Notes: a model not told the origin generated them from the sequence alone. Shown: positions 9,001 through 61,974, counted from the stretch's first letter. The stretch is 64,000 bases of DNA from Candidatus Bathyarchaeia archaeon (GCA_049513715.1 JBEKVV010000002.1:64001-128000), one strand, 5' to 3'. Made by a program: numbers and translations.

Positions 9001-9060
9001 GGTAACGTCACTTCTGCGTTTGGTGAAAGCATCTCGTAGCTGTGTAACAATTCGTTTGGT

Positions 9061-9546
9061 TCAGTAGCGTCTTTCGTAGCGAGAAAGTTTAATCTTCGCC
9101 TTGGCTGGCCTGAGAATTGTGCGTTGTATGCGTTCCCTGAAAGTTATGTCAAATTTCAAGAAGACTGAATCCCGACCCAGTACAGTATACGGTATAGCCT
9201 CTGGATTGACTGGGACGAAGACAGGCATGTCTGCGAAAGTTGCTATATTATTTCCCGCTTTCAAGACCTCGATGGTGAGGTTGAAAATCACTGTGTCGAA
9301 CCCGCCGCCTGCACCTATAGATGGTGTTGCCTTTTTGGGGTCTATTTGGAGACCTAAGATTTCTGCTAGGTCTGTTGGGACGAATGTATTGGTCGCTCCT
9401 GAATCAACAAGACCTAAAGTTGTTAGACTTGCTGTTGCTGTCCTAAGTCTGACATGGAGAAGCGGAACCCTAAACGCTCGCTTAAGCAGGGGATGATAAT
9501 ATGAAAGATAACGATTTACTACAGCACCTTTGAAAAGAGAGGACAA
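9061..9546 (-). CDS. Retropepsin-like (clan AA) aspartyl protease, IS passenger
   Basis: GLVDSGATNTFVP catalytic motif and LGRD motif. Confidence 0.85.
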   Translation of the reverse strand: MSSLFKGAVVNRYLSYYHPLLKRAFRVPLLHVRLRTATASLTTLGLVDSGATNTFVPTDLAEILGLQIDPKKATPSIGAGGGFDTVIFNLTIEVLKAGNNIATFADMPVFVPVNPEAIPYTVLGRDSVFLKFDITFRERIQRTILRPAKAKIKLSRYERRY

Positions 9547-9552
9547 GTTAGG

Positions 9553-9747
9553 TTACAGCAGCATTACGGTGTCGGACGGAATTTTCATAACGAATGGCTC
9601 CTTGTCTGGATACCTTCGTTTGGCTTCCGCGAACACTTCTTTTCCGCTGTCACCAGATGCAACAAGTTCCTTGCCAACGAGCGCAATCCATTTGCCTACA
9701 TACTCGCGTAGATCGCCCATTGACATTAGGTAGTTCAAATAGTCCAT
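9553..9747 (-). CDS. DUF5678-like small protein, IS passenger
   Basis: YVGKWIALVG.ELVASG...EVFAEAKRRYP pattern; directly upstream of the aspartyl protease. Confidence 0.75.
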   Translation of the reverse strand: MDYLNYLMSMGDLREYVGKWIALVGKELVASGDSGKEVFAEAKRRYPDKEPFVMKIPSDTVMLL

Positions 9748-9817
9748 TTTTCTCTACTCCTGAAAAATAACAACTGTACATTTAACCCTGTTGTTCGCCT
9801 ATCCAATGTTACAGTCG

Positions 9818-10015
9818 TTAATCCTCTTTCCTTCTAACAGTTTTAGACGGGTCGGCGCTAATCCAGAGAACAATGGCTTCCTCGACAGCTTCCGAGATGT
9901 TGCCTTTTTTCATGCCTTTACGCTTGAAAACCTCTTCTTTGAACCGCTTTTCTCTGTCTGCTGGCAAATACACATCTATTCGAGATTTGCCTTTTGGGAC
10001 GCTTGGAGACACCAT
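9818..10015 (-). CDS. Small ribbon-helix-helix-like DNA-binding protein, divergent from the transposase
   Basis: RIDVYLP strand followed by KKGNISEAVEEAI helix. Confidence 0.6.
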   Translation of the reverse strand: MVSPSVPKGKSRIDVYLPADREKRFKEEVFKRKGMKKGNISEAVEEAIVLWISADPSKTVRRKED

Positions 10016-10123
10016 CTAGCCCTCAGAAAGCATATAGACACATTACCACTTATAACCTTTACCCCCTTACCACCAGCTTTATCTAGGAAAGAGGCGTATA
10101 GGTGTTTAAGTGGTAAACCACCA

Positions 10124-11248
10124 ATGCAAGTCCTCAGAACTCGTGAAGAAAGGGGCCGAATAATTGCCGAAAAGTCTAACCAAATTGTTCGATTGGATGA
10201 ACGGTTCTACCGTGTAACTTCTCAGTCTGGCAATGGAATGTATGATGTGACCAAGCGCAAGGTCGGTGGATGGTTATGTACTTGCCCCGACTTCGAGTTT
10301 CGTAACGTTCAATGTAAGCACGTTTGGGCTGTCCAATTCAGCCTAGCCGTAAGGAAAGAGGTCGAGGCTAGAGTCATTGAGCCAATAACAGACATACACG
10401 CTTGCCTATTCTGCAAATCCGAGAACATAATTCGCTGGGGCTTACGCCACAACAAGTACGGCGACATTCAGAAATTCTCCTGCAAATCATGTGGCAAATT
10501 CTTCACGATCAATCTAGGCTTTGAGAAGATGAAGCACAGCCCTCAAGCGATAACGACAGCCATGCAACTATACTTCTCAGGCGAAAGTCTACGGAATACG
10601 GCTAGATCGCTACGCTTGATTGGAGCGCAAGTGAGCCATCAGACAATCTACAGGTGGATAGCCAAGTACACGACATTGATGGAGAAATATCTGGACAAGA
10701 TTACGCCTCAAGTCTCGGACACTTGGGCCACAGACGAATTATTTCTGAAGATTAAGGGGAACATGAAGTATCTCTACGCTATGATGGATGAGCAAACACG
10801 GTTTTGGATAGCTCAAGAGGTTGCGGATACGAAATACACGGCTGACGTTCGACCACTATTCCAACTCGCCAAGCAAATCGCAGGCAAGCAACCAAAGACG
10901 CTCGTCTCTGACGGTGCGGCCAATTTCCATGAAGCATACCTGAAAGAGTTCCGCACAGCCAAACTTGAGAACAGAACCGAACACATACGACACATCAGAC
11001 TAGCAGGAGATTACAACAATAACAAGATGGAGCGCATGAACGGGGAAATCAGAGACCGAGAAAAAGTGATGCGGGGCTTAGAAATCAAAGACAGCCCAAT
11101 ACTCAAGGGCGTACAAATCTACCATAACTTTGTGAAGCCGCACATGGCACTAGACAACAGAACACCCGCTCAAGCAGCGGGAATAGAAGTCAAGGGCAAA
11201 GACAAATGGCTAACAATCATACAGAACGCTAGTCAAGAGAAAACCTAA
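10124..11248 (+). CDS. IS6-type DDE transposase with N-terminal SWIM Zn finger and Zn ribbon
   Basis: CTCPDF..CKH (SWIM), CLFC/CKSC ribbon, HTH, WATDE, VSDG and NNKMERMNG DDE motifs; ATG 10124 preferred over the ORF-track start 9791. Confidence 0.92.
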   Translation: MQVLRTREERGRIIAEKSNQIVRLDERFYRVTSQSGNGMYDVTKRKVGGWLCTCPDFEFRNVQCKHVWAVQFSLAVRKEVEARVIEPITDIHACLFCKSENIIRWGLRHNKYGDIQKFSCKSCGKFFTINLGFEKMKHSPQAITTAMQLYFSGESLRNTARSLRLIGAQVSHQTIYRWIAKYTTLMEKYLDKITPQVSDTWATDELFLKIKGNMKYLYAMMDEQTRFWIAQEVADTKYTADVRPLFQLAKQIAGKQPKTLVSDGAANFHEAYLKEFRTAKLENRTEHIRHIRLAGDYNNNKMERMNGEIRDREKVMRGLEIKDSPILKGVQIYHNFVKPHMALDNRTPAQAAGIEVKGKDKWLTIIQNASQEKT

Positions 11249-11279
11249 TCCCAGTTCTCGATAAACTTAGGAAGTCTTG

Positions 11280-11513
11280 TCAAGTCTTGTTCGGCGACTT
11301 GAGGAGAGCTATCCAGTCAAGCGCCCTCTTCTTCACCTCACCAACCGAGGCTTTTTCACCGATTTCGATTAACGCAGGTATAGCAGTTACACCAAATGCG
11401 GCGACAGCGTTAACTGCTGATACTCTAGCTTCATAATCTGCCCATTTCGCATACGTAGGCATAGATTGTAGAGCTACCCCCTTCAGTCTATCTATCTGCT
11501 CCTTCTCTGACAA
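11280..11513 (-). CDS. Small HEAT-repeat-like hypothetical protein, IS passenger
   Basis: ARVSAVNAVAAFGVTAIPALIE HEAT-like motif; GAGG RBS. Confidence 0.5.
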   Translation of the reverse strand: MSEKEQIDRLKGVALQSMPTYAKWADYEARVSAVNAVAAFGVTAIPALIEIGEKASVGEVKKRALDWIALLKSPNKT

Positions 11514-11748
11514 TGCTGAGCACTTCCTCTATCCCTTTTCTATATGGATGATTCATGTACCATGCCAGAAAAGCCTTTGCGTCATTTCCATCCATTTTGA
11601 GTATGATCTCGAAGAAGCCAAGCTCGTTCCGTAGATGCCTCGTCACACGCCATCTTAACCACCGATTTACAAACGCTCTACGCCACCGACCAAACGGTTT
11701 GTTACAGCCCAAAAAAATCGGTCTACCAAACTAAGACGTTACGTTACC

Positions 11749-13174
11749 ATCCCGAGAGACATGAGTGAGCCTCGGGCAAGTCGGGGTCCAGGTTGATGGC
11801 ACGATCTAGCGGTGCCTTCGCATTTGAGAGGGAACCACCGTAAGAATCCTGTCCGGATTCGGCAAGGGCCAGGTGACACTCGGCTATACCCACATACGCC
11901 CTCGCGAACTCGGAGTCCAACTCGATGGCCTTCTCGAAGAGACTTATAGCCTGCCTAAGAGAATCCTTAGTCTCCTCCCTGAAAAGTTCCCGGCCCCGCA
12001 GAAAGAATGTGTACGCTTCAGTGTTCTCGGTAGGTTTCTTCTCCAGAGTTCTCTTCTCGGAGTCCACCAGACGAACCCTGAGCTCCTCTGCCACCTTCTC
12101 AGCTATCTCCGATTGTATGGCGAAAACATCCTCCAGCTGCCTATCATAGTTCTGAGCCCACAGATGCTTATCACCTGCCACATCGATAAGCTGGGCAGTG
12201 ATCCGTATCCTATTTCCCGCTTTCCTGAAACTGCCCTCAAGAATGGAACCCACGTCCAGTTCTCTACCGATCTCGCCTAGTTTCTTCGCGGTCCCCTTGT
12301 ATCCCATTACTGATGTTCTCGAGATGACACTAAGACCACTAATCCCTGACACAATGGAGATGATCTCCTCAGTTATGCCATCCGCGAAATACTGGTCGTT
12401 TGTGTCCGGGCTCATGTTAGCGAATGGCAGGACTGCGATTCGAGTCTTCTCAAGCTCTGACTTGCTCACGCTCCTCTTCTCAGCTACGAGTCCCTCCAGC
12501 GGGAATTCTCTCTGGGACATTTCTACTCCATGAGCCCACTTGATACGGAAGAACTTCCGTTGTCGTCCCTCGACATCTCTCTCGAAGATTTCTATGCTCG
12601 CATCGAACACGTCCTCCAACGCCTGCGTCTCCTCGGCCGTGTGCATGTACGGATTGAGAACTGCGAGGGTTGTGATACCCCTTCCACGGAGTCGTTCCAA
12701 GAGTTCGTTGAGCCATTTCCTCGTTTGAAGCGCCTTATGCCTCAGCAATACGTCCGAGAGAATATCCAAGCCGAGGCGTTTCGGGTGGGTGGCGCCTAAG
12801 GCTTCGTTGATTTGAAGGTTCAAGTCGGTGAGGTTCTCGATTCCCTTACCGGGCAGGATGCCCTTTGCGGGTGAGACGGGTTTGTCGCTGCAAATCAGAC
12901 ATGCCGTGCCTTCAGCCGCATCTGGCACGATCACTTGGGCGAAGGAGAGGTTACGGCATATCAGTAAGCTAGGCTGCTCGCTCTTCAGGAACTTACCCAG
13001 CAGAATTGGCACCTCGTCGCCTGCTGGAGCGTTCAGCACAACCATGGAACCAGAAAGGAACCCCCCGTGTAGAGCCTCGTCCAGTCTACCGTAACCAGTT
13101 GAAACCTTCGTCCGAATAGAACTGACCGAGGCGCCTTCGGAGGTCACGTTAATTCGCGCACAATCACTCCCCAC
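11749..13174 (-). pseudogene. N-terminal part of an interrupted gene: degenerate KaiC/RecA-like domain, TolB-like domain and TPR (start may be 13147)
   Basis: VSTGYGRLDEALHGG KaiC-like start; RIAVLPFANMS..YFADGITEEII TolB-like motif; ends at the TSD. Confidence 0.88.
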
Positions 13175-13366
13175 AGCTATATTATCCCTGAGACTGGTTG
13201 CATCAGCCGGACATCAGCCAATCAGCACGAGCGAGCAACGATTCCATCGAGCCTTTCTTTATGAGTCATGAATACGAGACTCGATTATTCGGTAGGCCGT
13301 AGACTGAACTGTTGACTCGTGACAAGCCGTGCTCATTGTCGCATGAGCAACGTTACGTGAAGGAGT

Positions 13367-13477
13367 TGGCGCCGGGGGTGGGATTTGAACCCACGAGACT
13401 CAGAGAGTCATCGGCTTAGCAAGCCGACGCCATACCAGGCTACCAGACCAATGTTGCGGTCTCTTGGCTACCCCGGC
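13367..13477 (-). tRNA. tRNA-Ser(GCT) with a 23-nt intron at position 15/16 (13440-13462)
   Basis: Acceptor GCCGGGG/CCCCGGC plus GCCA, anticodon arm TCGGC-TTGCTAA-GCCGA, long variable arm, TTCAAAT T-loop; BHB-like intron in the D arm. Confidence 0.93.
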
Positions 13478-13775
13478 AACCATACGTGCAAATCCAATAT
13501 GGTTCCTCTAGAATAGCATGTCGGCCAATTGAGGCCTCTCACATCCACCTCCCCCACTACTTCAGAGTTTCTCACCGAATGGCGTGACTTGGTAGCGGCA
13601 ACCTGAGCCAGAAAAGATGTCTAGACTATGTCCTTCAGGAGCGGTGGTTTGATGGAGCTGTTCGTTAAATTGTGCTTGATTTGGCCCGTGTAGTGAGTAA
13701 CCCATTCGGCTAGGTGGAAGGAATCTATCTGTGGACCGCTCATAAGAAGCCCAGACGCCTTGCAGCTTAATACGA

Positions 13776-16625
13776 TTGCTTTGCATACCTGATGAACAGT
13801 CGTCAAAGAGAATTCTGGTGCATGGCAGCGTGAGAATTACAGCCTCAACAATTTGCCTTCTGACCATCGCCATAATATCCATACTCGTGGGACAAGCCGG
13901 TTCAGTGTACGCTCTTGCACCCCAAGCGGCAGTCGCCTCAGTGACTCACCCAAGTAGTGTGCCGTCTGGGTTACCGTTCGAGGTGACCGTCACCGTCGAC
14001 TATTCCGACAAGTTCCTGGCCGATGTTGGGGTATGGGATCCCGTAGCGGGGGTCATGATTAGAAGTGTAACTCTCATCAGTAGTTTCACTGGCCCCGGCA
14101 AGACCAACTTCATCTTCCAGTTGACAGCTCCGAATTCCCAACCGAAGTGGCATCTAATCGCACTGACAAGGGTATGGTGGGAAGACGCATGGTACCAAGA
14201 CCCTGAGGGCGGAACGATGCCATTCGACATCTCAGTCATATCCGCAAACACCAATGCCATCCTTACCTTATCGTCAACCGTCCCCGCCACCACTGTAAGC
14301 GTGGACGGAGTTTCTCACGCACTAAGCAACTTGCAGTCGCTAGCCTTGACACTCGCACTTGGAACTCACACATTGCAGGCCACGCAGCTAATTCCAGGAG
14401 GGGAGGGTGAACGATTCGTCTTCAATGGTTGGAGCGACGGCGTGAACTCAAACCCACGAACGTTAGCAATCGCCACTGACACTAATGTCACGGCGCTGTA
14501 CGGCACAGAATACTATCTCAAATTAACATCAAACGCAAGCCAACCCTTTGGGGAGGGTTGGTACGCACTAAGTACAGTGGCAACCTTCGGTGTCCTTGCA
14601 ACAACATATCGTCTCACAAGTTGGTCGGGGTTCCTAACATACGATTATCGCTTCACCGGCTGGATGGGAGACAGTGATTCAACCGCTAATACAGCATCAG
14701 TAGTCATGGACGGCCCGAAGTCCGTCAGCGCACGTTGGACACAGACGGGAACACAAATAGACCAACTGACCGTTGGACCGATAATCCTCTTAGCTGCGGT
14801 CCCGCTCGCAATTCGAGCTGCTTACGTTTACAGAAAGCACCAAACATCAAAGAGCCAATCGCCAGCAACACGATTCAACCCTGCAACAATGCCCGTCGCC
14901 ATCTTATGCCTCATTGTCGTAAGCTTCGCGTTCACAGTACCAGTGCACGCGCAACTCCCAGTACAGCCACATGCCACTGTCGTGAAAATCGGCGACGCTT
15001 ACTGGTACTATTGGAATCAGGCGCGGAGTGATACGTGCATCCTGTGGCTTGGGGGGGGAATTTCTCAGGAGACTTCCAGCGGCTACAACTACTACTGGGT
15101 AAACCCATTCGACTATGAGTCGTTCGGGACGATTCATTTCATTCAGGAGCTTTCTACCTATTATTGCATGATCGCCCTTGAGAAGGGTTCTTACGCTGAG
15201 GTCAACGCTGCGGCAAATCGAACGATCTACCAGGAGCTCTATCAAATTCAATCAACAATAATCGCAGACGTTCATAGCTGGATCAAGCAGCAGGGCTACG
15301 TCCACACAGTCTTGATGGGGTATTCAGTTGGAGGCCAAGCAGCCGCAATGGAAGTTGCTATCCGAGATCCAGGGAATTGGACCAACGCAGACTCAGTGGT
15401 CCTGATTACTGTCCCACTTGCGAACAGCGCAATCAACCATGCGCACAGCATCAAAACAAACCTCCTATTCCTCTTCGGAGGGAACCTGGCTGACTTCGTC
15501 GCCACAGGCCAGCAATTCTACAACAATGCACCGGCCGAAGGTTGGCAGAGTTCATCCTACTATCACAAGGAATTCTACGTCCTGCAGGAGGTTGGCCATG
15601 AGGTCTGGACCGTTCGTGACAGTGGCGAATACAGCACCACCGCTCGCAACATGGTAATCAACTTCATCGAAAAATCAAAAGCGCTTCAACTCACCCCCGA
15701 ACTAGGGTCCCTATCGGAAGCTCCTGTAGGGAACTGGAGCTTCGAGATCACGTCAGTGCGAGTGCCTCCGCGAATCGCGCCGGGAGATGTAATTCCAGTT
15801 GGTGTGGATGTGAGCCAGAGCTTTCAATCAACAGGACCCTTGACGTTGATTGTATATGACGAGTCCCATGCCGAACCATTGAGTGCCGAAAGCTTCACGC
15901 TGGGTTCGAGCGGAAAGGCAGCGGTCGACCTGGTTGTAAGCCCACGGAACTCAACAACTCGATCACTCACCATAATCCTGATGCAAGAGGTCGGTGGCCA
16001 TTGGTCGATTGCGGCGCAGCCGCGGTCCGTCACCGTAACTATCTCCGACCTGGTAACTCTCAAATTGGCATCAAATGTGCCCAACCTTACGTTCCTGATG
16101 GATGGAACCCCATACCCGGCAGATCAAACTGGCCAACTTCAGATGGAAAGCTTACGTGCCGTGCATATTTTTCAAGCCCAGCCTGTTGTTTATGATGGGA
16201 ACGTGACTAGGCTTGTTTTCACCCAGTGGGATGACTCCAATACCTCAACCCTTAGGCAGGTTAGCTTGGAGAATGATACGACGTTCACCGCCTTCTACAG
16301 AAAACAATACTACGTGACTGTCATCTCTCCTTACGGAACGCCTCTCGGGTCGGGCTGGTATGACGAAAACTCCACAGCCACGATCTTAGTTCAACCACCC
16401 ATAATTGGGCAAGAGAGTGTAGCGTTCACCCGGTGGACGGGCGACGCTACTGGTTCTCAACCCAGCCTCTCCATGTTCGTGGATTCTCCGAAAACAGTGC
16501 AGGCAGAATGGACCCACCTAAGCAATGAACCGACACAATCCAACGCTCCATTCGTGATGTGGATGATTTTCTGTGGCATGGTCTTCTTAGTTCTGTTAGC
16601 CCTAAACTTCAGGCGTCGATCCTGA
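13776..16625 (+). CDS. Large membrane-anchored surface protein with beta-repeat domains and an alpha/beta-hydrolase-like domain (start probably about 13817-13829)
   Basis: Signal-like N-terminus, F.GWSDG / GEGWY / F..W.GD repeats twice, GYSVG nucleophile motif, C-terminal TM plus RRRS. Confidence 0.75.
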   Translation: MLCIPDEQSSKRILVHGSVRITASTICLLTIAIISILVGQAGSVYALAPQAAVASVTHPSSVPSGLPFEVTVTVDYSDKFLADVGVWDPVAGVMIRSVTLISSFTGPGKTNFIFQLTAPNSQPKWHLIALTRVWWEDAWYQDPEGGTMPFDISVISANTNAILTLSSTVPATTVSVDGVSHALSNLQSLALTLALGTHTLQATQLIPGGEGERFVFNGWSDGVNSNPRTLAIATDTNVTALYGTEYYLKLTSNASQPFGEGWYALSTVATFGVLATTYRLTSWSGFLTYDYRFTGWMGDSDSTANTASVVMDGPKSVSARWTQTGTQIDQLTVGPIILLAAVPLAIRAAYVYRKHQTSKSQSPATRFNPATMPVAILCLIVVSFAFTVPVHAQLPVQPHATVVKIGDAYWYYWNQARSDTCILWLGGGISQETSSGYNYYWVNPFDYESFGTIHFIQELSTYYCMIALEKGSYAEVNAAANRTIYQELYQIQSTIIADVHSWIKQQGYVHTVLMGYSVGGQAAAMEVAIRDPGNWTNADSVVLITVPLANSAINHAHSIKTNLLFLFGGNLADFVATGQQFYNNAPAEGWQSSSYYHKEFYVLQEVGHEVWTVRDSGEYSTTARNMVINFIEKSKALQLTPELGSLSEAPVGNWSFEITSVRVPPRIAPGDVIPVGVDVSQSFQSTGPLTLIVYDESHAEPLSAESFTLGSSGKAAVDLVVSPRNSTTRSLTIILMQEVGGHWSIAAQPRSVTVTISDLVTLKLASNVPNLTFLMDGTPYPADQTGQLQMESLRAVHIFQAQPVVYDGNVTRLVFTQWDDSNTSTLRQVSLENDTTFTAFYRKQYYVTVISPYGTPLGSGWYDENSTATILVQPPIIGQESVAFTRWTGDATGSQPSLSMFVDSPKTVQAEWTHLSNEPTQSNAPFVMWMIFCGMVFLVLLALNFRRRS

Positions 16626-16641
16626 AGCGGCCTCATTCACC

Positions 16642-17313
16642 ATGAAGGTTTCTCTCTTGGTTCGGAACACGGTGCACTCAGAGATTCGGTCGCATTTCCT
16701 GTTCAAAGGCAAGCGGATGGCCGATCACCGCGCGCCTTCACCCGCTGTTCAAAAGCAGAGGGTTGCAGTGCATAGAGATGTGAGCAGAGCACTAAGGCGG
16801 TCCATCTCGGGGCTATCGCCAAGGCATGTACTGGATGTTGGCACGGGTTATGGGGCCAGTGTGGAGCTTTTGGCACGGAGGTTCGGAGGGATGGGACGGA
16901 TTTGGTCGATAGACGTTTCGGCAGAGGTCATTCGATCCGTGCGAGAGATGCTGAAGAGCAAAGGATTGGGAGAGAGCGTCTTCCTGAAGAAAGGCAAAGC
17001 GGAGCAGATGCCTTTTCGTGCTGGGCGCTTTGACTTGGTTGTCTCTCTGCTCTCACTACATCATTTCTCCAACCCCCTGGAAGCCCTGCGCGAAATGGCA
17101 CGCGTCACCTCACATGGTGGGAAAGTAATTGTAGCGGATTGGAAGCCGACCAAGTCGCCGGTGACACCACACTCGGCCAAAGACATCCCTTCCCCCACAT
17201 TTGTCGAACGAAAACTCAGACTGCTAGGATGGTCTACGACTCTGAAGGAAGGCCGATACTGGTATCTAGTCGAGGCCTCCAAAGGGCAATCGAAGCCCCT
17301 GCAAAATCGCTGA
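16642..17313 (+). CDS. Class I SAM-dependent methyltransferase
   Basis: VLDVGTGYG, FDLVVS, LHHF motifs. Confidence 0.88.
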   Translation: MKVSLLVRNTVHSEIRSHFLFKGKRMADHRAPSPAVQKQRVAVHRDVSRALRRSISGLSPRHVLDVGTGYGASVELLARRFGGMGRIWSIDVSAEVIRSVREMLKSKGLGESVFLKKGKAEQMPFRAGRFDLVVSLLSLHHFSNPLEALREMARVTSHGGKVIVADWKPTKSPVTPHSAKDIPSPTFVERKLRLLGWSTTLKEGRYWYLVEASKGQSKPLQNR

Positions 17314-17320
17314 TTCCACA

Positions 17321-19831: not shown

Positions 19832-19832
19832 G

Positions 19833-36044: not shown

Positions 36045-36141
36045 GGGCCCGTAGTCCAGCTGGTTAAGACGTCGCCCTCACATTCGGAGAATTATATGAG
36101 AACGGCGGAGATCCCCGGTTCGAACCCGGGCGGGCCCACCA
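36045..36141 (+). tRNA. tRNA-Val(CAC) with a 20-nt intron at canonical position 37/38 (36083-36102)
   Basis: GGGCCCG/CGGGCCC acceptor plus ACCA, GGTTCGAACC T-arm, CTCA/TGAG BHB helix. Confidence 0.93.
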
Positions 36142-53644: not shown

Positions 53645-53726
53645 CGAGTCAATGGAGGTCATGGACTGAGAATCCTGTCAGGACACCGCCACTGGAATGG
53701 CGGCATCCCTCATGAAGGTATAGAAC

Positions 53727-54230
53727 ATGGAAGAATCAGCTCAAGTTGATAAAAAGAATTGGGGTTCCCCTTGCGAAGACTGTGAAGGTACGGGCAGGAA
53801 TGCCGTGGGCGGTGTATGCTCAAACTGCCGGGGGCTGGGTCAAGTGAGCCTGTTCGATTCGAATCTGCTACCGATAGGAGGTCGGAAGGTTACGAGAACT
53901 CTCACAGAGACAAGTGAGCCGGTTCCACCGAGTAAACCCGTTGAAGAGCCAGCGTGGAAAGCAAACCAGAAATTCCGCGCCTTCGCGAGAACTGAAAGAG
54001 GTTACGCGATCGTCAGTTCATGCGCCGAAGCCGCAGCCAGCGATGTCCGAAGCAACATAGAAGCCCTCCGCAGCGGTAATCTTAGCGTCGCGGAATGGAA
54101 AGCCCGCCAGATATGGCTCAAGTACTGGCTGCTGCATCGCTACCCAGATCTGCCCGAACCTTTGCGACATGAAGCCGAAGATTTCAGAGACCTTCCCTAC
54201 ACACCACGCCGGAAACGCGCCACAAAATGA
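53727..54230 (+). CDS. Hypothetical protein with DnaJ-type Zn finger
   Basis: CEDCEGTG and CSNCRGLG repeats. Confidence 0.65.
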   Translation: MEESAQVDKKNWGSPCEDCEGTGRNAVGGVCSNCRGLGQVSLFDSNLLPIGGRKVTRTLTETSEPVPPSKPVEEPAWKANQKFRAFARTERGYAIVSSCAEAAASDVRSNIEALRSGNLSVAEWKARQIWLKYWLLHRYPDLPEPLRHEAEDFRDLPYTPRRKRATK

Positions 54231-54389
54231 GGCGAAACAGTTGAAAACCATCCATGCGAACACATTTACATTATCACACCCTCTCTCTCGCTCTCTGAGG
54301 ATAAGACTATGCCCTGCCCGGGCTGAGGGCGCGGGTGTGCTTGTAGGTCTCCTTCCGTTAGTCAGGTTACCGTTGGAGGGCTTTATTGA

Positions 54390-54767
54390 TTGAAGTCTGT
54401 GGTACACAAAACGACTAGGCGGGAGGGTGGTCAACCGGGAAATCGGAATGCGTCCAAACGAGTTGCCATGCCTGAGTGGCTGAACCTTGAGGAGCCTGCA
54501 TCGGTTATCAAATTCATACGGACGATTTTGATCCCGTACACGCTCGCGGGGCGAATTGGCACGCGCCAATCATCCGCAATAACTACAGCATGCAAAGTTC
54601 TCTTGGATTATGATGCTGACCTCCAGCACCTGGAAGAAATGAAGGAGGGCTTGGCCCGGATGGAGGAAGAAATGAAAGAGTTTGACGCGAAGCTGCAGCA
54701 GCATCGAGCCGCCATGAAACCAGTAGGTTCTACAACTGATGACACAATCAAACCGAGCGCAAGCTGA
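54390..54767 (+). CDS. Protein with GGQPGNRNA motif and coiled coil (terminase-small-subunit-like motif)
   Basis: GGQPGNRNA near the N-terminus; GGAGG RBS. Confidence 0.55.
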   Translation: MKSVVHKTTRREGGQPGNRNASKRVAMPEWLNLEEPASVIKFIRTILIPYTLAGRIGTRQSSAITTACKVLLDYDADLQHLEEMKEGLARMEEEMKEFDAKLQQHRAAMKPVGSTTDDTIKPSAS

Positions 54768-55002
54768 ATCCGAGGACCAACTTCAACACCTCAGGGCTTG
54801 GTCGATGGAAATCATAGATAGAATGATGCGGGATTGGAGGGTTCTTCAGCCGCTTGCACTCAAACGGCAATATGCTGACTTAATCATTGAGATGATAGAA
54901 GCACGTGTCGGCGCAGATCCGTACCCTGAGGGAATACTTCGCAAACTGAACGGATACCTAGAAGAACTTCAACCTTGGATTGGGAAGGAGAACGTTCGAT
55001 AG
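54739..55002 (+). CDS. Hypothetical protein
   Basis: Overlaps the upstream gene; last of the small-gene operon. Confidence 0.55.
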   Translation: MTQSNRAQAESEDQLQHLRAWSMEIIDRMMRDWRVLQPLALKRQYADLIIEMIEARVGADPYPEGILRKLNGYLEELQPWIGKENVR

Positions 55003-55053
55003 GTTAGCAGCTTCTGATTTGGATTCAGCATCGTTAGAGCAATGCGTTTGCGG

Positions 55054-55485
55054 TCATGGGTGAGCGAAGTACCAGAACCATGCTGAAACTAGGATGTATA
55101 CTACTCCCGCAATGAGAAGACTGAACAATACTGCATAGGTTTCAATTGCCCTATGCGAACGATTCATTTGCCAATGGCCTGTCTCTACGTAGTCTATCCA
55201 CGCCTGAGGCGTCATGGCAGGATTTTCCCAAGGGAAACTTATCCACTTGACCGCAAGACCTCGCAGATGATACACTGCAAATCCTCCACCGATGAGAAGC
55301 AACAACGCAATTGCATCAGTGAGCGCAAAGAGCGTCTTGTAACTGGGTATATCCTTGGTAACGAATGGGAGGGTTGCTAAGACGATGACGATGGCAAGGG
55401 TAGCCCCCAAGATTTCCCATGCCAATGTATTGTAGTAGCAGAACATCTGAATCCTATTTTCGGTCTTCAGCGTTTCCGCAGACAT
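55054..55485 (-). CDS. Hypothetical membrane protein
   Basis: Three hydrophobic helices. Confidence 0.6.
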   Translation of the reverse strand: MSAETLKTENRIQMFCYYNTLAWEILGATLAIVIVLATLPFVTKDIPSYKTLFALTDAIALLLLIGGGFAVYHLRGLAVKWISFPWENPAMTPQAWIDYVETGHWQMNRSHRAIETYAVLFSLLIAGVVYILVSAWFWYFAHP

Positions 55486-55498
55486 AATGAACTGCCCT

Positions 55499-56434
55499 TC
55501 ATGTCTGGGCAGTGCCGCACTTGGAGCAGAACTCTGAGCCGATAGGAATCACGGCTCTGCAATTCACGCAGAATTGATTCTTAGTTTGGGCAGCACTTAC
55601 CGAATCAAACGCATTATTGGGGCAAAGCCAAGTCGTGCCTGCTGTTCTCTCTGGATGGGTCTTGTTATCGAGTCTGCCTTCAGGCCCACGAAAAGCATGG
55701 TACAATTCGCATTCCTTAGTGAACGCAGCCTCTGGAGAATCGAAATATGCGAATTTGAATGAATCATATTTGCCGATATGCTCCTTCAGTTTAGCATTGA
55801 TGTCTGAATCAGAACGGCCAAAATATTTGACGAAGAAAGTTTTACCCGGCTTGTGGCCAAGAGCATACACACCGGGCGAACCGGTGCCAACTTCTTCATT
55901 TATTGCCTGCTCATCGAGTGGAAACGGCCCCTGCAAACCAGTACTTGGTTTGTATTCATGTAATTCTCTGACAGTCTGTCTAGTCCTGTTAGACCTCACC
56001 TTGATTACGGTCGCTATCCCTGCGACCATTATTAGAAGACTTGCAGCCAGCGCCAGATAAGCTCCTGAACCGAGGCTGACCGTCACATCCGGGGTGGTGA
56101 GCTTTTCGGATTCACTTGCGAGAAAGCTCATCTCGTATCCTGTTTGCAACAGCACGATGAATCCTAAGACGACGTCCCCAAGCCCAGTCGATGAAGTCTG
56201 CTTCTTGAGCAGTGTTGCCAATGCGCCCACCACAGCGACTCCGAGAAAAATCATGCTAGAGATTCCCCCGAAAAGTTGCAGTAAAGACGAGCTTCTCTGA
56301 AGGGTTATTCCAATATCTGGCAGTGGAGCAGCAAACGTTACCCAAGGAAGAAACACACTAACGGCCATCATTACATATCCAAGTAATGCGACGAGCCCCT
56401 CTGGCCCCATCTTCGTCTTGACTTCAGTCAACAA
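55499..56434 (-). CDS. Four-TM membrane protein fused to a GIY-YIG-like domain and a Zn ribbon
   Basis: PGVYAL...KYFGRS..D...L..H...ECELYH; C-terminal FCVNC..FCSKCG. Confidence 0.65.
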   Translation of the reverse strand: MLTEVKTKMGPEGLVALLGYVMMAVSVFLPWVTFAAPLPDIGITLQRSSSLLQLFGGISSMIFLGVAVVGALATLLKKQTSSTGLGDVVLGFIVLLQTGYEMSFLASESEKLTTPDVTVSLGSGAYLALAASLLIMVAGIATVIKVRSNRTRQTVRELHEYKPSTGLQGPFPLDEQAINEEVGTGSPGVYALGHKPGKTFFVKYFGRSDSDINAKLKEHIGKYDSFKFAYFDSPEAAFTKECELYHAFRGPEGRLDNKTHPERTAGTTWLCPNNAFDSVSAAQTKNQFCVNCRAVIPIGSEFCSKCGTAQT

Positions 56435-56703
56435 ACCACTTGCTATGTTTTAGGTTTGAATAGGCTTAACATTTTGCATGTCGTACGTAATTTCCGGTAA
56501 ATGAAGTCTAGAGGCAAGTCAATAGACCGAAGAGTTGATAGGCCAAGAACGCAGCGTGGATCGAAGATCCGAGATTGTGAGTTCATTGTGGGAAACCCCG
56601 GTTTAACCTTGTCCTTCCCTTTACAGTCTGAACATGCATAAGCGGACAGCGCAAACAGTCATATCTGCTGATGCCCACAATTCTGGGGCAGGTCATAAGT
56701 CCC

Positions 56704-57372
56704 TTGGCTGTGGTTGCGATACGTTGCCCAACATGCGGCTCTGCGGCGGCATCGACTACTAATCCCAATGAGTACACATGTACACACTGCTGAACCCGTT
56801 TTCAAATTGTCCGACCCTCTGACGCCACAGTAGTAACGGACATCCGAGCGCACCACTGTCCCATCTGCGGGAGACCAGTTCAAACAACACAAGGCTTTCG
56901 GTGTACAGAGTGTGGCGGGGTTGACTTCTGCGAATCCTGTGTTACGGCCGTTCCAAGTCTCGGTGGGCATCGTTTCATGTGTAGACCATGCGTTCACCAA
57001 AAGAACTGGGACTGTGCAACCTGTGGAGACTACGCATCATTGACCTGCGCCAGTTGTTCCAACCGCTCATGTGATAAACACTACACAAGGACTTTCGGAA
57101 TGGCGACTCGCGGACAGAACGAGCTGAATTTCTTTGAATGTGCGCAATGTGGTGGCAAACTTTGCACCAGCTGCGTGGAGATCAGGAAGGGATTCTTTTC
57201 CGAGAAACTCTACTGCAGGAAATGTCGCAGCGAACTAGAGCCCATAACTGAAGTTGGCCGAACCTGCCAATTCTGCAACCTGATAATCCGACGGAGCGAA
57301 TCTCTCTGCGGCTACTGTGGAAAGTCCCAGAATGTCGAGTCCGCGTCACTTGGCACGAAGACAATGGTGTAA
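56704..57372 (+). pseudogene. Poly-CxxC zinc-finger protein interrupted by an in-frame TGA (56791-56793)
   Basis: Frame upstream of ORF 56977 continues with CxxC motifs back to TTG 56704. Confidence 0.7.
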
Positions 57373-57485
57373 CGAAAAACCAGCCTGACCAAGCAGCCTA
57401 GTGGGCTGTGATTTCGAGGCCAATTCCGCCCGGTCGCCCAAAAATCATGAGAAGTTGAGCGGAAAGTCGACAACGCCTAGGAGGC

Positions 57486-57833
57486 CTAGAGTTTTGCGCC
57501 GCAGTGACCGCAGTAAGCTAGATTCGCTTGAGTTCCTTTCCCGCACTGGGTACAATACCTTACGGGTGTCGCTTGTTGGAGAGGTGGTGCTGTAACATCT
57601 TTCTCTGTCTTCTTTCCTCTTCGCCATCTGACTATTTCACCCACGATACCTGCAGGTATTCCAAAAATCATTCCCAACCCCGCAACGTCAACAAGCGCAT
57701 AGACCCCAGACGGCGCGGAGGGTCCACCTGCCGCCTCCGAGATTCCGTAGATTACTCCGAATCCGAGGGTGAAAATGAACCAGAAGAAAGTGCCAATCAC
57801 GCAAATGATAAAACCCCAAACGATTGGGCGCAA
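57486..57833 (-). CDS. Two-TM membrane protein with C-terminal zinc ribbon
   Basis: YCTQCG..YCGHCGAKL; TTG start with GAGG RBS. Confidence 0.7.
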   Translation of the reverse strand: MRPIVWGFIICVIGTFFWFIFTLGFGVIYGISEAAGGPSAPSGVYALVDVAGLGMIFGIPAGIVGEIVRWRRGKKTEKDVTAPPLQQATPVRYCTQCGKGTQANLAYCGHCGAKL

Positions 57834-57846
57834 TGCAATAAACCTC

Positions 57847-58605
57847 TTAGGAAATAGTTCTCGAAATTTGGTCACGACTTTTTCGTATTGCAAACCCACA
57901 TAGAGACAGGGCTGTCGCCAACATGACTGCTGGCCACGTGGTCTCTGGGATACTTGCATACTCGGTGCTTTGTGTGTCAAGGGTCATCTTAGTGGCTAAG
58001 TTGCTTCTGCTGGCACTCATGAGTGTAAGTTTGAAGGATTGTTGGGTGTGCGGTTGAACGGTAGTCGGTTCAGTGAACGTGTAACCCACGTCGACCACTT
58101 TGCCGTCGGCGTCAAAGAAGATGGCTACGACTTTCGTGTATTCGCTGATTGTGTCGCCGTTGTTCTTGACTTCGCCGACTATCTCTAGATATCCGAGGCT
58201 ATCCTTTGATGAGGAGGTATTGATAATTTCTAGGGCAGTGGTCAATGGTTCGCCTATCTGGAACTCGATTGTGAGTGTGTAACTTCGAATATTCGCCGAC
58301 TTCGCCGTGTCATATTCGAACACGTCAAAGCCTGAGGTAACACCGGGGGGCAGGCGGTCGAGCAACGTGTAAGTGAAGGCAGTGTCCACTACGGCGCCGT
58401 TCTGGTCTTTGAAGGTGGCGTCAATGCGCACATATCGTAACCAAATATCGCCGGTGTTTTGCACTTCCCCCACCACATGTAGGTAACCAAGTTCATCGAA
58501 GTAACTACTAGTGTTGCTCTGAATGACGGCGCTTGGAGAAGCCGCCACATGGGGCAAGGCGAATAGGAACAGTAGGACTAAGGTCACGGGGATGAACCTC
58601 TTCAT
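57847..58605 (-). CDS. Secreted protein with two FxLYD-like domains and an IPE/TM C-terminal anchor
   Basis: Duplicated GYL..VGEV.N.G...F.D..G.VVD domain; IPETTW plus TM and basic tail. Confidence 0.78.
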   Translation of the reverse strand: MKRFIPVTLVLLFLFALPHVAASPSAVIQSNTSSYFDELGYLHVVGEVQNTGDIWLRYVRIDATFKDQNGAVVDTAFTYTLLDRLPPGVTSGFDVFEYDTAKSANIRSYTLTIEFQIGEPLTTALEIINTSSSKDSLGYLEIVGEVKNNGDTISEYTKVVAIFFDADGKVVDVGYTFTEPTTVQPHTQQSFKLTLMSASRSNLATKMTLDTQSTEYASIPETTWPAVMLATALSLCGFAIRKSRDQISRTIS

Positions 58606-58751
58606 AACCTCAAACCTAGGAGTTTGTAGGAGATTGAATGCTCTTAACACTTGCCAAATTCTCCCCATTTTCCTGAAAAGTGTGCATTGTCTATAGAAAC
58701 GCTATTGGCCACTCAATTCTCGATAATACAGGAGGGAAGAAGGGAGCTTCC

Positions 58752-58892
58752 TCAACCACTCTCCCGGGCTGCAACCTTTCCAGTTCCACCGCAGGCCTTG
58801 CATTCCTCAAAGTACCCTCTCGTTCCAACGATATGCCAATGCCCAAAAGCGCCTAGGCACGACAAGCAGGTTTCTGATTCTTTCTCAGTCAT
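58752..58892 (-). CDS. DnaJ-type Zn-finger microprotein (46 aa; not in the ORF track)
   Basis: MTEKESETCLSCLGAFGHWHIVGTRGYFEECKACGGTGKV...; paralog of 61975-62208. Confidence 0.7.
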   Translation of the reverse strand: MTEKESETCLSCLGAFGHWHIVGTRGYFEECKACGGTGKVAARESG

Positions 58893-58991
58893 CTAGACCA
58901 CACGGTGTAACGTCTAGGTTCTCGGTGATAGCCGATGAGAACAGAAAAGTAATGAGCTGAGAGGCTACCAAAAGTACAGTTCTTAAACCAA

Positions 58992-59522
58992 TTAGCCGTT
59001 CTTGATTCCGGTCAAACGTTCCAGTTCCACTGTTAGCTTCTCGCAATTTGACTTGAAGTAGCGCCAGTGCTCATCGAAGACATCGGTTCTGAGACGAATC
59101 CACGGAGCAGAGCCAGTCTGCATATCCGAAAACGAACCTGCAAACTCATGTGTCTCGAAGTCAGATCTGAGCCTCCCCAATTCCGTCGCGCTGAGATAGT
59201 ATCCGAACCGCTCCACCATCCTACGGATTTCCTCGAACTCCTGAGAGGTAAGAACAAAAGCCCACTCTGCGCCGGCATCATTTGAGTCGGCCCTTTTAAC
59301 GACCGACGTCCTGACTATGGCTCTAGCCTTCTCGTTGCGTGCCCGGTCCAGAATCTCCAACATTGGAAAGTAAATCTTCTCAAGTTTGCGTTCGATCGTA
59401 GCCTTCTTTCTATCGTTCTTAGCTTCATTAATGGTCACCGCGGCAAAGTAGACCAACGCAAAAGTGGCCACCGCTTCTACTATTGAAACTGTAGCCAAAA
59501 TCCAATCTGTGACTTGCACCAA
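58992..59522 (-). CDS. Hypothetical protein with N-terminal TM helix
   Basis: TM helix followed by ERKLEKIYFP. Confidence 0.65.
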   Translation of the reverse strand: MVQVTDWILATVSIVEAVATFALVYFAAVTINEAKNDRKKATIERKLEKIYFPMLEILDRARNEKARAIVRTSVVKRADSNDAGAEWAFVLTSQEFEEIRRMVERFGYYLSATELGRLRSDFETHEFAGSFSDMQTGSAPWIRLRTDVFDEHWRYFKSNCEKLTVELERLTGIKNG

Positions 59523-59738
59523 TTCAAGTCAACTGCCACATTATCTAGCATATGCAATGTAAGAGGATTGTTCTGAAACTCACCTGTCAGAGAAGAATGA
59601 AACTATGCCCCAACGCAGGAACAGTGGGAAAGCCTGGATGTCGAAAGAGGGGTCAACCAGTGTGTGGCCAACTCTCCCTTGATTTGTTCTACGCGCGCTC
59701 CCCAAAACGTAAAAAGCAGTTAACAATCAGCCTGCATT

Positions 59739-60032
59739 ATGGGAATTTGTCGAGCGTGTCAAACTGTCTTAGACGAAGGTGACCGGTTCTGCCGAGTTTG
59801 TGGAAACAATGTTTCAGGGTCGCAAGGCTTTCCCTATAGCCATCCAGCGCTCTATTGTAATCCTGAATTTATAGCTCAACTAGCCCTCACAGTTGCTAGT
59901 GCTGCTAGTGGAACAATTGCCGGGAACGCATGGTCGAATTGGCGGTCAAGAGCATACTGTGCTAGTTGTGGGATATGGTTTCCAAAGTCGGAGCGGTTTT
60001 GCGATCGATGCGGCGCACGTCTCCAAAGCTAG
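59739..60032 (+). CDS. Double zinc-ribbon protein
   Basis: CRAC..FCRVCG and CASCG..FCDRCG. Confidence 0.7.
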   Translation: MGICRACQTVLDEGDRFCRVCGNNVSGSQGFPYSHPALYCNPEFIAQLALTVASAASGTIAGNAWSNWRSRAYCASCGIWFPKSERFCDRCGARLQS

Positions 60033-60175
60033 AACATCACGCTACTAGATTCTTCCGCTTCTAGTCCTACTTGAGGTACTCGCGCGGCGGTAACGTCAAC
60101 TCTTCGGTTGCTAAGGAAAAAAATCTCCGCTTGTAAAAAGTCGGTTGTTGTGGTAACTACCCAGTTGTTAGAAAA

Positions 60176-60688
60176 TTATTGAGTCCTCGAATCCAGAATA
60201 TTTTTCAATTTGTCGCGAGCTTCGGGGGGAATCTTTGCCTTTTGTACCGCTTGATGTTTGACGTAGTACACTGGGTCACCATTCATATCATATTTGCTAG
60301 TTCGTGAAACCATCGTGACGACTAATTTCACGCCTAAGATAACTCCCTCTGACGATTTGTATTCGTTCCACTCTTCTTTGACTGTATCGAACGGTATATC
60401 TTCAGCAACTACGGAGTTGGCGATTTCCTGAATTGGGTAAGACTGGGTGTCTTTCGCACCTTTGAGTTCCTTCGGCACGGAAGTGGTCAAGATGATATTT
60501 GCCCCCGCTCCAAAGCGGGCATTTCCCTCTGAATCGAGTCCTTCAAGGAAGAATTTCAACAAGATTAGCTTGACTTTGAGCGCGACATCGACCGTATCCT
60601 TGATTGTGTATATACTCCAACCCTCTTTGACAGTATCAAAGTTCAACTCGACTGCGCTAGGGTCGGGTACAGTGGGCTCCAATGTCAT
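60176..60688 (-). CDS. Tandem-duplicated-domain hypothetical protein (cassette cargo)
   Basis: FDTVKEGWSIY..VKLIL..DSEGNARF repeated as FDTVKEEWNEY..VKLVV..DMNGDPVY. Confidence 0.75.
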   Translation of the reverse strand: MTLEPTVPDPSAVELNFDTVKEGWSIYTIKDTVDVALKVKLILLKFFLEGLDSEGNARFGAGANIILTTSVPKELKGAKDTQSYPIQEIANSVVAEDIPFDTVKEEWNEYKSSEGVILGVKLVVTMVSRTSKYDMNGDPVYYVKHQAVQKAKIPPEARDKLKNILDSRTQ

Positions 60689-60788
60689 TCTCTCTGAGAC
60701 GGTTAATGAGGCAACTATTTAAGAAATCGACCATATGTTCGTCTTCTAGGTCATTTTCATATCTCAGATATTCACTCATGACGAGGTT

Positions 60789-61469
60789 GTGCCATTGACA
60801 ACATCCAATTTCGATATTCAAGGCTACGAACTCGTAGGCTCGCAGGTGCTCTACGTTCATGGTCTTGTGTTCCCGATACAATCAGGTTCGATTACCGGAA
60901 CTAGTTCCAAGGCTCAAACAATCATCGTGAACACATCTGGGTTCTCAAATGATCTTCGCGTTTACCCTGTGCCTCACATGGGAACGTCTCATATTGTCTA
61001 TACAGATCAAATAGTGCAGGTCGGAACCCCTCAAGAATGGCACTCAGTTAGTCTTTTAGATCGCCCATCTAGATTCTGGAACTGTTCGATTGAATCATTC
61101 ATTTTTCCATTAGCTGATACAAGCAGAAGTTGGAATGCGATTCGTTTGCCTGCTCGACTAGCAGATTACTCAGATGCGCAAGCTGTCGCATGGTTCGCTT
61201 CTGAATCCGAACTAATTGACTCTGTGAGTAACCTGTGTAATGCCGTTGATTCTGAACTTAGAACAAGAAAGCTTAGATTTTCCAATTCGATAACGACATT
61301 TTCCGACCCTGAAGAAGATGATGATAACTCGCTTATTGTTGAGTATAAGATTGCCAACAAGCATTATGACGAAGTTATCAAGATTTGGAATGCAATCTCG
61401 CTTAAGGTACTGACGGGTTTACCGGAAAATGTACTCGACAAGGTCACTTTGACGATGGAAGACGAATAG
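60789..61469 (+). CDS. Hypothetical protein, putative partner of the HEPN gene (cassette cargo)
   Basis: GAGG RBS; stop is 1 nt before the HEPN start; acidic C-terminal domain. Confidence 0.65.
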   Translation: MPLTTSNFDIQGYELVGSQVLYVHGLVFPIQSGSITGTSSKAQTIIVNTSGFSNDLRVYPVPHMGTSHIVYTDQIVQVGTPQEWHSVSLLDRPSRFWNCSIESFIFPLADTSRSWNAIRLPARLADYSDAQAVAWFASESELIDSVSNLCNAVDSELRTRKLRFSNSITTFSDPEEDDDNSLIVEYKIANKHYDEVIKIWNAISLKVLTGLPENVLDKVTLTMEDE

Positions 61470-61470
61470 A

Positions 61471-61842
61471 TTGTTTGCACCTAGCGACTTTCTTGCCTAT
61501 GCTAAATCAATCCCCATTACAGATGAGAAAAGTGCTCGGACTTGCATAGGCCGTGCCTACTACGCAGCTCATCTTTCCGCTAGAGAAAAAGTTCGGTCAC
61601 GCTATCCGAATCTATTTCAGCCTTTTCGCGGGTGCAGTAATGAGCACTCTGTAGTAAGAAACAAGTTAGCAAGGGATTTGAAGAGACCCGACATCACTCA
61701 GAACCTCAGACAATTAGTGCGAAAAAGAGTTCGGGCAGACTACGACATACGAAATTACATCTCCTCCAACCATTTCACAAATGAGGCAACTAGAGCAATC
61801 ATCCTCTGTGATACAATCCTAAAATCTCTCAGCACTGTTTGA
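61471..61842 (+). CDS. HEPN domain protein (cassette cargo)
   Basis: RTCIGRAYYAAH, central H and LVRKRVRADY motifs. Confidence 0.8.
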   Translation: MFAPSDFLAYAKSIPITDEKSARTCIGRAYYAAHLSAREKVRSRYPNLFQPFRGCSNEHSVVRNKLARDLKRPDITQNLRQLVRKRVRADYDIRNYISSNHFTNEATRAIILCDTILKSLSTV

Positions 61843-61974
61843 TTCTCCTCACTAGCGGCTCGACCCACTTCACGTATTCTTGTTCTTCTCGTTAATTGCG
61901 AGTTCCTTCAGAATCCCAAATCAGATTCGCAACCCTTCCTAGCAACCGACAAGTTGACGTTACCCGCGCGGCGG

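Follow-up and report, generated by a model that had tools for sequence, protein, structure and literature searches.

Analysis of a 64,000-bp stretch of a Candidatus Bathyarchaeia archaeon genome (GCA_049513715.1, JBEKVV010000002.1:64001-128000; the whole stretch is here called the window, and its positions are counted from its first base) led to the recognition of two elements, an insertion sequence (IS) at 9001-11748 and a 1,876-bp cassette at 60089-61964, both of which are genuine insertions of one archaeal family of gene-carrying transposons. The 2.7-kb IS belongs to an archaeal IS6-like family as an intact, cargo-bearing transposon. The cassette is a transposase-less member of that family, probably mobilized in trans by a sister transposase whose predicted end code is a different one. 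As a whole, a cargo transposon and a trans-moved cassette of one IS6-like family, endowed with an end-recognition code, promoter anchoring and operator-guided insertion, would be the probable account of the data. Both window copies occupy dispersed sites, the IS being in a host gene and not at a promoter. The genome of the window (G000; 2.79 Mb, contigs C1-C8, assembly 99.4% complete) was compared with relatives' records from Bathyarchaeia, Nitrososphaerota, Methanoperedens and Asgard archaea, plus metagenomes, in which loci carry L numbers.

All four outer ends begin with the octamer GGTAACGT (9001 and 60089 on the plus strand, 11748 and 61964 on the minus strand), exact 8-bp duplications flank the IS (ATCCCGAG) and the cassette (CGCGCGGC), and the inner end motif is GTTTGGT in the IS versus CGGTTGCT in the cassette, all as an earlier sequence-only reading had claimed. 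By itself the octamer is weak evidence because it has 78 matches across the 2.79-Mb genome, only three pairs of which have a matching 8-bp duplication; as an element marker on its own it was rejected, most matches being due to chance. The window holds five matches against 0.93 expected (five were reached in 1 of 100 shuffles), and the fifth, at 56335-56342, has no partner. The evidence that counts is the likeness of the ends over about 24 bp together with the duplications and the subterminal repeats, not the octamer. Over 26 bp the two IS ends agree at 20 positions, the two cassette ends at 23 and IS versus cassette ends at 17-20; a repeat resembling a binding site lies 43-61 bp inside both IS ends and the left cassette end, and no subterminal repeat of the end motif was found at the right cassette end. 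In silico removal of the IS and one duplication leaves a single stop-free host frame of 702 codons. A second, identical IS copy lies at hsp20 (C2:146968-149715) with a different duplication, and in contigs of four public runs, from which the assembly may itself derive, the IS has roughly double the depth of its flanks and is joined both to the window flanks and to the hsp20 flanks. Given these contigs an assembly artefact is unlikely as the cause of the IS, with the same proviso on the origin of the runs; they contained neither circle joints nor empty sites, and such contigs drop rare forms. The cassette is single-copy in G000 and across 23 genomes of the genus, and a search for its empty site in 22 relatives did not find the orthologous flank.

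The family extends well beyond the window. End pairs with an 8-bp duplication numbered 153 in 148 loci, counting nested ones and those from duplicate loci; displaced controls gave 0-4. A duplication length of 8 was seen in 125 pairs, and lengths of 5, 6, 7, 9 and 10 in 4, 11, 0, 1 and 2 pairs respectively; 95 units could be assigned to a full transposase. Eight of the 148 loci were removed ahead of further counts as duplicates or copies of the elements of G000 itself, which left 140. In G000, an end search that required 14 of 20 bases to match yielded 12 pairs (0-2 in controls): 10 are units, one is a composite made up of two units and one is probably due to chance. Four of these 10 units, all bounded by ends and duplications, have a transposase and six do not, in agreement with the earlier proposal of one family with autonomous and non-autonomous members. 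The transposase core scores 52 bits with Pfam PF13610 (cut-off 27) and its catalytic residues D204, D263 and E303 are invariant in 118 aligned rows. It reaches 110.6 bits with the NCBIfam IS6 equivalog NF033587, under the cut-off of 125, and stays below both cut-offs of the Mutator-type models (IS256, 24 bits versus 150; ISH6, 20 versus 240); the top fold match is ISCth4, but with a template modelling (TM) score of 0.42. The terminal repeat is about 24 bp long, with G1, G2 and G7 at 0.97-0.99 (185 ends), and the units are 2.0-7.5 kb long and carry cargo.

Two tip classes were distinguished, GGTTCTG in most of the family and GGTAACG, which changed 3 times on the transposase tree versus 27.9 times after shuffling (83 rows; quick tree method, with 12 of the 95 units excluded, two for spanning two transposases and 10 for mismatched ends). 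Within the genus, 21 of the 22 other genomes matched the GGTAAC end pattern, frequently at many places, and elsewhere among 401 genomes of the class it stayed near the reversed-pattern control, except in genome G065. The GGTAAC tip therefore marks a nearly genus-limited clade, and the octamer, taken by the sequence-only reading for the cleavage domain, is not family-wide. An integron identity was discarded, as each unit has DDE genes, terminal repeats and duplications of its own and not IntI/attC cassettes. No published description of the family was found in a literature search that covered few subscription papers and not ISfinder, and the IS tables of PMC6563490 may list members. A 364-bp element resembling a miniature inverted-repeat transposable element (MITE) at C1:872324-872687 matches six GGTTCTG-type ends near contig termini (C4:449, C5:136, C5:221599, C6:110204, C7:92772 and C8:90311), and a multi-copy GGTTCTG-tipped member may have broken the assembly at several contig ends.

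Within the ends, specificity appears to reside in two boxes. At positions 17-23 the two ends of one element differ by a mean of 0.97 bases (n = 93) and neighbours across a junction by 2.79 bases (n = 78), and the inner motif of the GGTAAC class shows 7 changes on the tree versus 20.6 in shuffled data (38 rows). Corrected mutual information over 82 rows revealed that bases 8-12 covary best with residues 171-177 of the helix-turn-helix (HTH), and bases 19-23 with zinc-ribbon residues 103, 105, 117, 119, 126 and 128; tryptophan 105 accompanies TTTG in 18 of 20 rows. Two points weigh against this code: the covariation is confounded by descent, because the W105-TTTG association leaves only three independent pairs (p 0.25, not significant), and the tree used for the end code is the quick one, the careful tree being incomplete. 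The code is trusted because the two DNA boxes map onto two separate DNA-binding domains. The HTH would thus read end bases 8-12 and the zinc ribbon bases 19-23, which would render sibling elements orthogonal despite a common tip. The earlier claim that the inner motif sets specificity holds insofar as the motif tracks the transposase by covariation, and falls short in that specificity looks two-part. The code also bears on the proposal that the octamer common to both elements lets the window transposase mobilize the cassette: the tip is shared, the ends are alike to the extent given above and 10 of 93 units have ends that differ at three or more inner positions, but both boxes differ between IS and cassette and covary with residues at which the window enzyme departs from the CGGTTGCT clade, which makes such mobilization highly improbable.

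The cassette boxes (TCAAC and CGGTTGCT) match those of L011, L095, L127, L136 and L208, three of which show a one- or two-base variant at one end, and the enzymes of these five loci share the zinc-ribbon sequence FCCLDC and also HQTVYNW. The four intact transposases of G000 have FSCKSC instead of FCCLDC, and the transposase fragments found in this genome all lack the binding domains; the closest code belongs to an enzyme on contig C4 with the same HTH, a zinc box one base off and the other tip class. The cassette is considered an orphan because no intact G000 transposase has the zinc ribbon of the sister clade, and no intact cognate enzyme was found in the assembly, in which family ends lie at several contig breaks. 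The sister enzyme is hence present in the lineage and not intact in this assembly. The sequence-only reading had suggested a sister transposase elsewhere in the genome and had named the lack of such ends and of such an enzyme in the lineage as counter-evidence; a transposase clade with CGGTTGCT ends does exist in the lineage, so that the suggestion stands there and not for this assembly.

Movement without an own transposase is documented for the cassette end type in genome G012, where 21 full-length 186-bp MITEs with the cassette's end (L285-L313) have spread to dispersed sites. Among the 13 MITEs with both ends scorable (the other 8 of 21 were left out of the count) 11 are flanked by a duplication that is exact or has a single mismatch; operators and TATA boxes are not among their sites. 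MITEs with this end have no subterminal sites. G000 also contains two related transposase-less elements at other sites (C1:639218 and C3:181573), 74-98% alike in four pieces. Separately, a 55-bp internal piece of the G012 MITE also matches C1:874009-874063. Three features weigh against trans movement of the window cassette itself: it is single-copy, no intact cognate transposase is present in the assembly and one subterminal site is lacking; G012, 87% complete, shows no intact cognate enzyme either. The same three features, together with a decayed end of the same type at C3:181500, would suit a history in which a CGGTTGCT-clade transposon inserted and then lost its transposase module in place, so that the cassette never moved as such. 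This history seems rather unlikely, as a profile search found no transposase or regulator remnant inside the cassette (best E value 0.58) and the G012 MITEs did spread with the same end and without subterminal sites, while the two related G000 elements fit either trans movement or separate deletions. Trans mobilization by a sister enzyme is accordingly kept as the likely origin of the cassette.

Promoter-anchored tandem arrays were missed by the sequence-only reading, whose core idea holds at the level of the lineage. Where two ends lie back to back within 60 bp, the gap between them is exactly 8 bp in 84 of 85 cases (140 loci), and arrays combine elements of different end codes around one shared duplication, often TTACGTAA. 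The idea that TTACGTAA is a carried spacer or a preferred 8-mer was rejected: it is host hsp20 promoter DNA, and other promoters give other duplications. Outer flanks follow a fixed order consisting of an operator (TTAC-N5-GTAA), 7 bp, a reverse TATA box, 5 bp and the duplication. Among 71 unique GGTAAC outer flanks, 32 have the exact operator at a distance of 19 bp from the duplication (one of the 32 being an artefact of the neighbouring end's own repeat), and no flank has it at another offset; the genes downstream are mostly hsp20 (18 loci), with htpX at two. All three strict operator sites in G000 carry an end, including the second IS copy at hsp20 and the decayed cassette-type end at C3:181500. 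Searching from the promoter side, 28 operator-plus-TATA sites were found, confined to this genus and distributed over 20 of 61 genomes. An end occupies the exact base at 21 of them, a weak end lies one base further at two, and five are empty. These do not reflect one inherited event because the proximal elements differ between genomes. GGTAAC units lie at an operator or against another end in 43 of 45 cases, the other two being dispersed, and element orientation at promoters shows no bias (21 versus 17). Intact transposases occur in 32 of 40 proximal, 9 of 18 second and 3 of 13 later units; the paired count, a fairer measure of decay because loci were fetched around intact genes, found the first unit intact and the second not in six arrays and the reverse in none, among 18 arrays (hand count, p 0.03).

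These data suggest that the transposase can reach its targets in two ways: mainly it would insert at a constant position 5 bp upstream of the TATA box, and less often at dispersed sites, as both window copies did. In the GGTAAC clade the promoter route would be confined to promoters with the operator of a likely heat-shock repressor, guidance being provided either by the bound repressor or by direct reading of the operator. As the targeting signal would lie on the gene side it would survive insertion, and each newcomer would push older elements outward. Several observations weigh against this view. The empty sites include a thermosome promoter, and the G000 thermosome promoter, recognized with a looser pattern, is also empty; several genomes of the 28-site set were also in the first locus set and all are kin, not independent; the operator is present in other genera without any element seen there; and operator and TATA box are hard to tell apart because of the fixed spacing between them.

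A rival reading is targeting by the TATA box and the complex of TATA-binding protein (TBP) and transcription factor B (TFB) alone, in which a repressor would park TBP-TFB without polymerase at heat-shock promoters, these would be favoured for that reason only and the operator link would be a by-product. Of 112 flanks of GGTTCTG-tipped relatives, 19 indeed have a TATA-like word at this offset, mostly without an operator (background at offsets 12-49: mean 1.3, maximum 4), with insertions at radA, alba and ssb promoters that lack it. In Pyrococcus, according to PMC9133787, Phr keeps polymerase away from the TBP/TFB complex at hsp20. On the other hand, every GGTAAC-clade flank with a TATA word at the offset also has the operator (although each genome has few operator promoters), and some occupied operator sites have a poor TATA box (L281 and C3:181500). 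Targeting by the TATA box alone is less likely than not; since the GGTTCTG relatives peak at the same offset, TATA-relative insertion looks ancestral and the operator restriction derived.

Array growth could alternatively be directed by the ends, as in IS911/IS30, with insertion 8 bp from any family end and the second operator of hsp20 acting as a seeding pseudo-end. The near-constant 8-bp junctions, the GGTAAC in register at the empty hsp20 site and the L004 array, which lacks an evident promoter flank, agree with it. So do arrays L006, L020, L067 and L135, in each of which a single spacer is the reverse complement of its neighbours; they suggest unit inversion at junctions, and simple promoter insertion leaves them unexplained. 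It would not predict that, of the 20 genuine duplications at operator sites (an artefact being set aside as the 21st), 12 begin with bases other than TTAC or that the empty htpX site L178 has no pseudo-end, two facts from which the second operator appears unnecessary for targeting. The 9-bp junction of L079 is expected from two promoter-measured insertions at offsets 19 and 20, and decay rises away from the promoter, as in the paired count. End-targeted insertion probably acts as a second route and is distinctly unlikely as the main one, for which operator-guided insertion at promoters is retained.

Some further loci are recorded here. The radA promoter is reused by GGTTCTG-tipped elements in four Nitrosopumilus loci (L034, L040, L046 and L071); insertions in L021 and L057 (Methanoperedens and Methanocellaceae records) lie beside an HSR1-like palindrome, with CTAAC-N5-GTTAG exact in L021; C3:181500 and L278:7103 (G065), in genomes of different families, share an identical 8-bp target and adjacent flank with different element ends; and in L050/L172 and L185 the hsp20-type promoter and array precede an unrelated secreted-looking protein instead of hsp20.

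The tip itself may be linked to the operator, as GGTAACG is an operator half-site. At the empty hsp20 site L161 a second operator starts with the first base of the stretch that insertion would duplicate and finishes in a host GGTAAC exactly where element tips sit, so that insertion at hsp20 rebuilds the second operator. Occupied sites with a second operator are GGTAAC-tipped in 17 of 17 cases versus 3 of 6 without it (p 0.011, a weak value given that two ends score low and the genomes are related). Elsewhere in the family, in other genera, hsp20 is preceded by a regulator gene, and two operators surround the TATA box in 8 of 13 loci; four of these regulator-hsp20 loci have an operator ending in GGTAACG and none is occupied. 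The corresponding candidate heat-shock regulator of G000, listed in Table 1, was identified by gene order and its upstream operator, and its palindrome is the one it may bind. It has a weak local likeness to an ArsR-type HTH protein (E 0.007) and, weighing against the assignment, no Pfam, NCBIfam or PDB match. A Phr/HSR1-like regulator had been sought through similarity to an L057 protein, which gave one weak match; gene order gave the present candidate instead.

By matching an operator half-site the tip would rebuild the second operator of hsp20 and make insertion nearly harmless. A broader picture, put forward tentatively and with somewhat less than even confidence, is that a transposon clade moved into a host regulon: it would have found repressor-held promoters, its tips would have converged on the operator half-site, and its two-module code would allow many orthogonal elements and passive cassettes to share one self-renewing landing pad, an integron-like, time-ordered stack of captured genes. 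The most plausible view of the shared octamer is that it is the tip of a clade linked to a heat-shock operator; the inner motif would be half of a two-part specificity code and the cassette an orphaned passive member. If true, this would be a compact, single-protein, site-directed archaeal integration system that leaves its target promoter intact, with an end-recognition code readable from natural variants. Most hsp20 promoters of one genus bear stacks, which may be its main route for gaining methylases, nucleases and many unknown genes in dated order, and a candidate heat-shock operator and regulator are obtained for Bathyarchaeia. The tip-operator match, if true, would clearly exemplify how a transposon can adapt its ends so as to preserve a host control circuit.

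Regarding cargo, the 123-residue cassette protein has a predicted HEPN fold: the model has a predicted local distance difference test score of 90, and its top fold matches are AF_0298 and the MntA-HepT complex (probability 0.99-1.0, TM about 0.6, E 0.04-0.25), with Pfam HEPN found in two of nine members of its family (E 0.03). R-x4-6-H is the usual HEPN ribonuclease motif; here it is absent, with a conserved RVRADY and no following histidine. The adjacent 226-residue protein gave no relative, family match or nucleotidyltransferase identity, so a toxin-antitoxin pair in the cassette is unproven. Pfam was run on 89 of 110 cargo representatives from 44 GGTAAC units (the 21 omitted were the 20 shortest and one already annotated). 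Matches were obtained for 13, eight of which are restriction-modification or toxin-like types (methylase, HNH, PIN, NYN, Fic or MazF); some unmatched representatives may be spurious frames. Only part of the cargo is thus of the toxin- or defence-like kind that had been suggested, and no antitoxin partner was identified for the HEPN-fold gene of the cassette.

Table 1. Features of the two window elements (window positions) and the candidate regulator (contig C1 of G000).
Feature	Position	Strand	Remarks
Host KaiC-like/TPR gene interrupted by IS	8313..13174	-	702 stop-free codons after IS removal
Left copy of IS duplication ATCCCGAG	8993..9000	+	Exact 8-bp match
IS left terminal repeat: tip GGTAACG, HTH box TCACT, zinc-ribbon box CGTTTGGT	9001..9024	+	Putative box assignments
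IS left subterminal repeat of end motif	9043..9060	+	Likely second transposase site
IS cargo, retroviral-type aspartyl protease domain protein	9061..9546	-	Pfam Asp_protease_2, E 6e-7, residues from 9510 down; also weak PADLOC match PDC-M08B, E 3e-5
IS cargo, DUF5678 protein	9553..9747	-	Paired with protease also in L079, L082, L129
Small ribbon-helix-helix-like gene, divergent from transposase, likely its regulator	9818..10015	-	Pfam RHH_6 match under the cut-off (E 0.036); 16 other loci of the transposon family have homologues
374-residue transposase	10124..11248	+	SWIM zinc finger 47-70, IS1-type zinc ribbon 94-128, HTH ~140-190, IS6-like DDE core 199-335
Two short IS cargo frames, 77 and 74 residues, no known family	11280..11712	-	Homologues of both in L042
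IS right subterminal repeat	11689..11706	-	
IS right terminal repeat	11725..11748	-	
Right copy of ATCCCGAG	11749..11756	+	
Left copy of cassette duplication CGCGCGGC	60081..60088	+	Exact match
Cassette left terminal repeat: GGTAACG, TCAAC box, CGGTTGCT box	60089..60112	+	
Cassette left subterminal repeat	60132..60149	+	None at right end
170-residue cassette cargo, archaeal family without name	60176..60688	-	Homologue inside autonomous element L063
226-residue cassette cargo, no family match	60789..61469	+	Directly 5' of HEPN-like gene
123-residue predicted HEPN-fold cassette protein	61471..61842	+	Canonical R-x4-6-H motif not seen
Cassette right terminal repeat	61941..61964	-	24/24 bases as in end of G012 MITE L201
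Right copy of CGCGCGGC	61965..61972	+	
Candidate heat-shock regulator with perfect operator palindrome just upstream (L282)	C1:164521-165333		Regulator at C1:164578-165333; palindrome ends in GGTAACG

Elsewhere in the window, small zinc-finger and winged-HTH frames adjoin the cassette at 61975-63418, with partial repeats elsewhere in G000, and resemble a decayed mobile region; ARAGORN called a tRNA, possibly intron-containing and with its anticodon undetermined, at 36045-36141.

Compared with known systems, the family resembles IS6/IS26 in its DDE_Tnp_IS240 core preceded by an HTH, its GG tips, the G at position 7, the 8-bp duplications and the occurrence of MITEs. It differs by its 374-residue enzyme with SWIM and IS1-type zinc-ribbon domains, by 2-7 kb single-transposase elements with cargo on both sides and subterminal repeats, and by fixed-offset promoter insertion with arrays of different elements around one shared duplication. 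The IS6 norm is about 0.8-1.7 kb, transposase only, with 14-20-bp repeats and a cTGTt core, whereas units here measure 2.0-7.5 kb and the GGTAAC clade lacks cTGT; copy-in cointegrate and targeted conservative reactions also belong to that norm. The family is thus related to IS6 by enzyme core, tips and duplication and lies outside its size range and score threshold. According to PMC7986276 and PMC6807381, IS6/IS26 includes long zinc-finger clades and the passenger-bearing ISDsp3, and in PMC6807381 archaeal and long members are argued to deserve separate grouping. Like non-autonomous derivatives in general the cassette has family ends and a duplication and no transposase; multiple copies and a cognate transposase are lacking in its own genome, and spread is seen for the same end type in G012. 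The regulator recalls Phr/HSR1 as presented in PMC9133787, where the regulator gene lies upstream of hsp20 and controls itself and the promoter bears a 5-N5-5 palindrome (CTAAC-N5-GTTAG in the case of HSR1, GTTAC-N5-GTAAC here), but the present candidate shows a weak local likeness to an ArsR-type protein and its binding is predicted.

Reuse of a site that survives insertion, leading to tandem elements, is also described for casposon arrays (PMC6563490), and the account of Tn7-family att-site targeting in archaea (10.1101/2025.07.27.667033) likewise includes a targeted and a dispersed route with site reuse. Unlike casposons and Tn7, the present elements have one small transposase and target a promoter instead of a gene end, and no Cas1, TnsC or TniQ/TnsD gene turned up in the two window elements. 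IS911 and IS30 insert next to element ends (PMC7986276). Their end-spacer-end junctions, with a spacer of duplication length, are similar, but position here is mostly measured from the host promoter and the arrays are polarized. Similar in targeting are TnGBS/ISLre2 (p-MULT 3) and ISKra4, which according to PMC3942029 insert 15-17 bp from the -35 box with 8-9-bp duplications, possibly through interaction with the transcription machinery as proposed there. Insertion at a fixed distance upstream of promoters and a similar duplication size are common to both; TnGBS/ISLre2 relies on a Mutator-type enzyme, bacterial sigma-A promoters and oriented insertion, whereas the archaeal family combines an IS6-like enzyme with TATA promoters, no orientation bias, one operator-bearing regulon and deep stacks.

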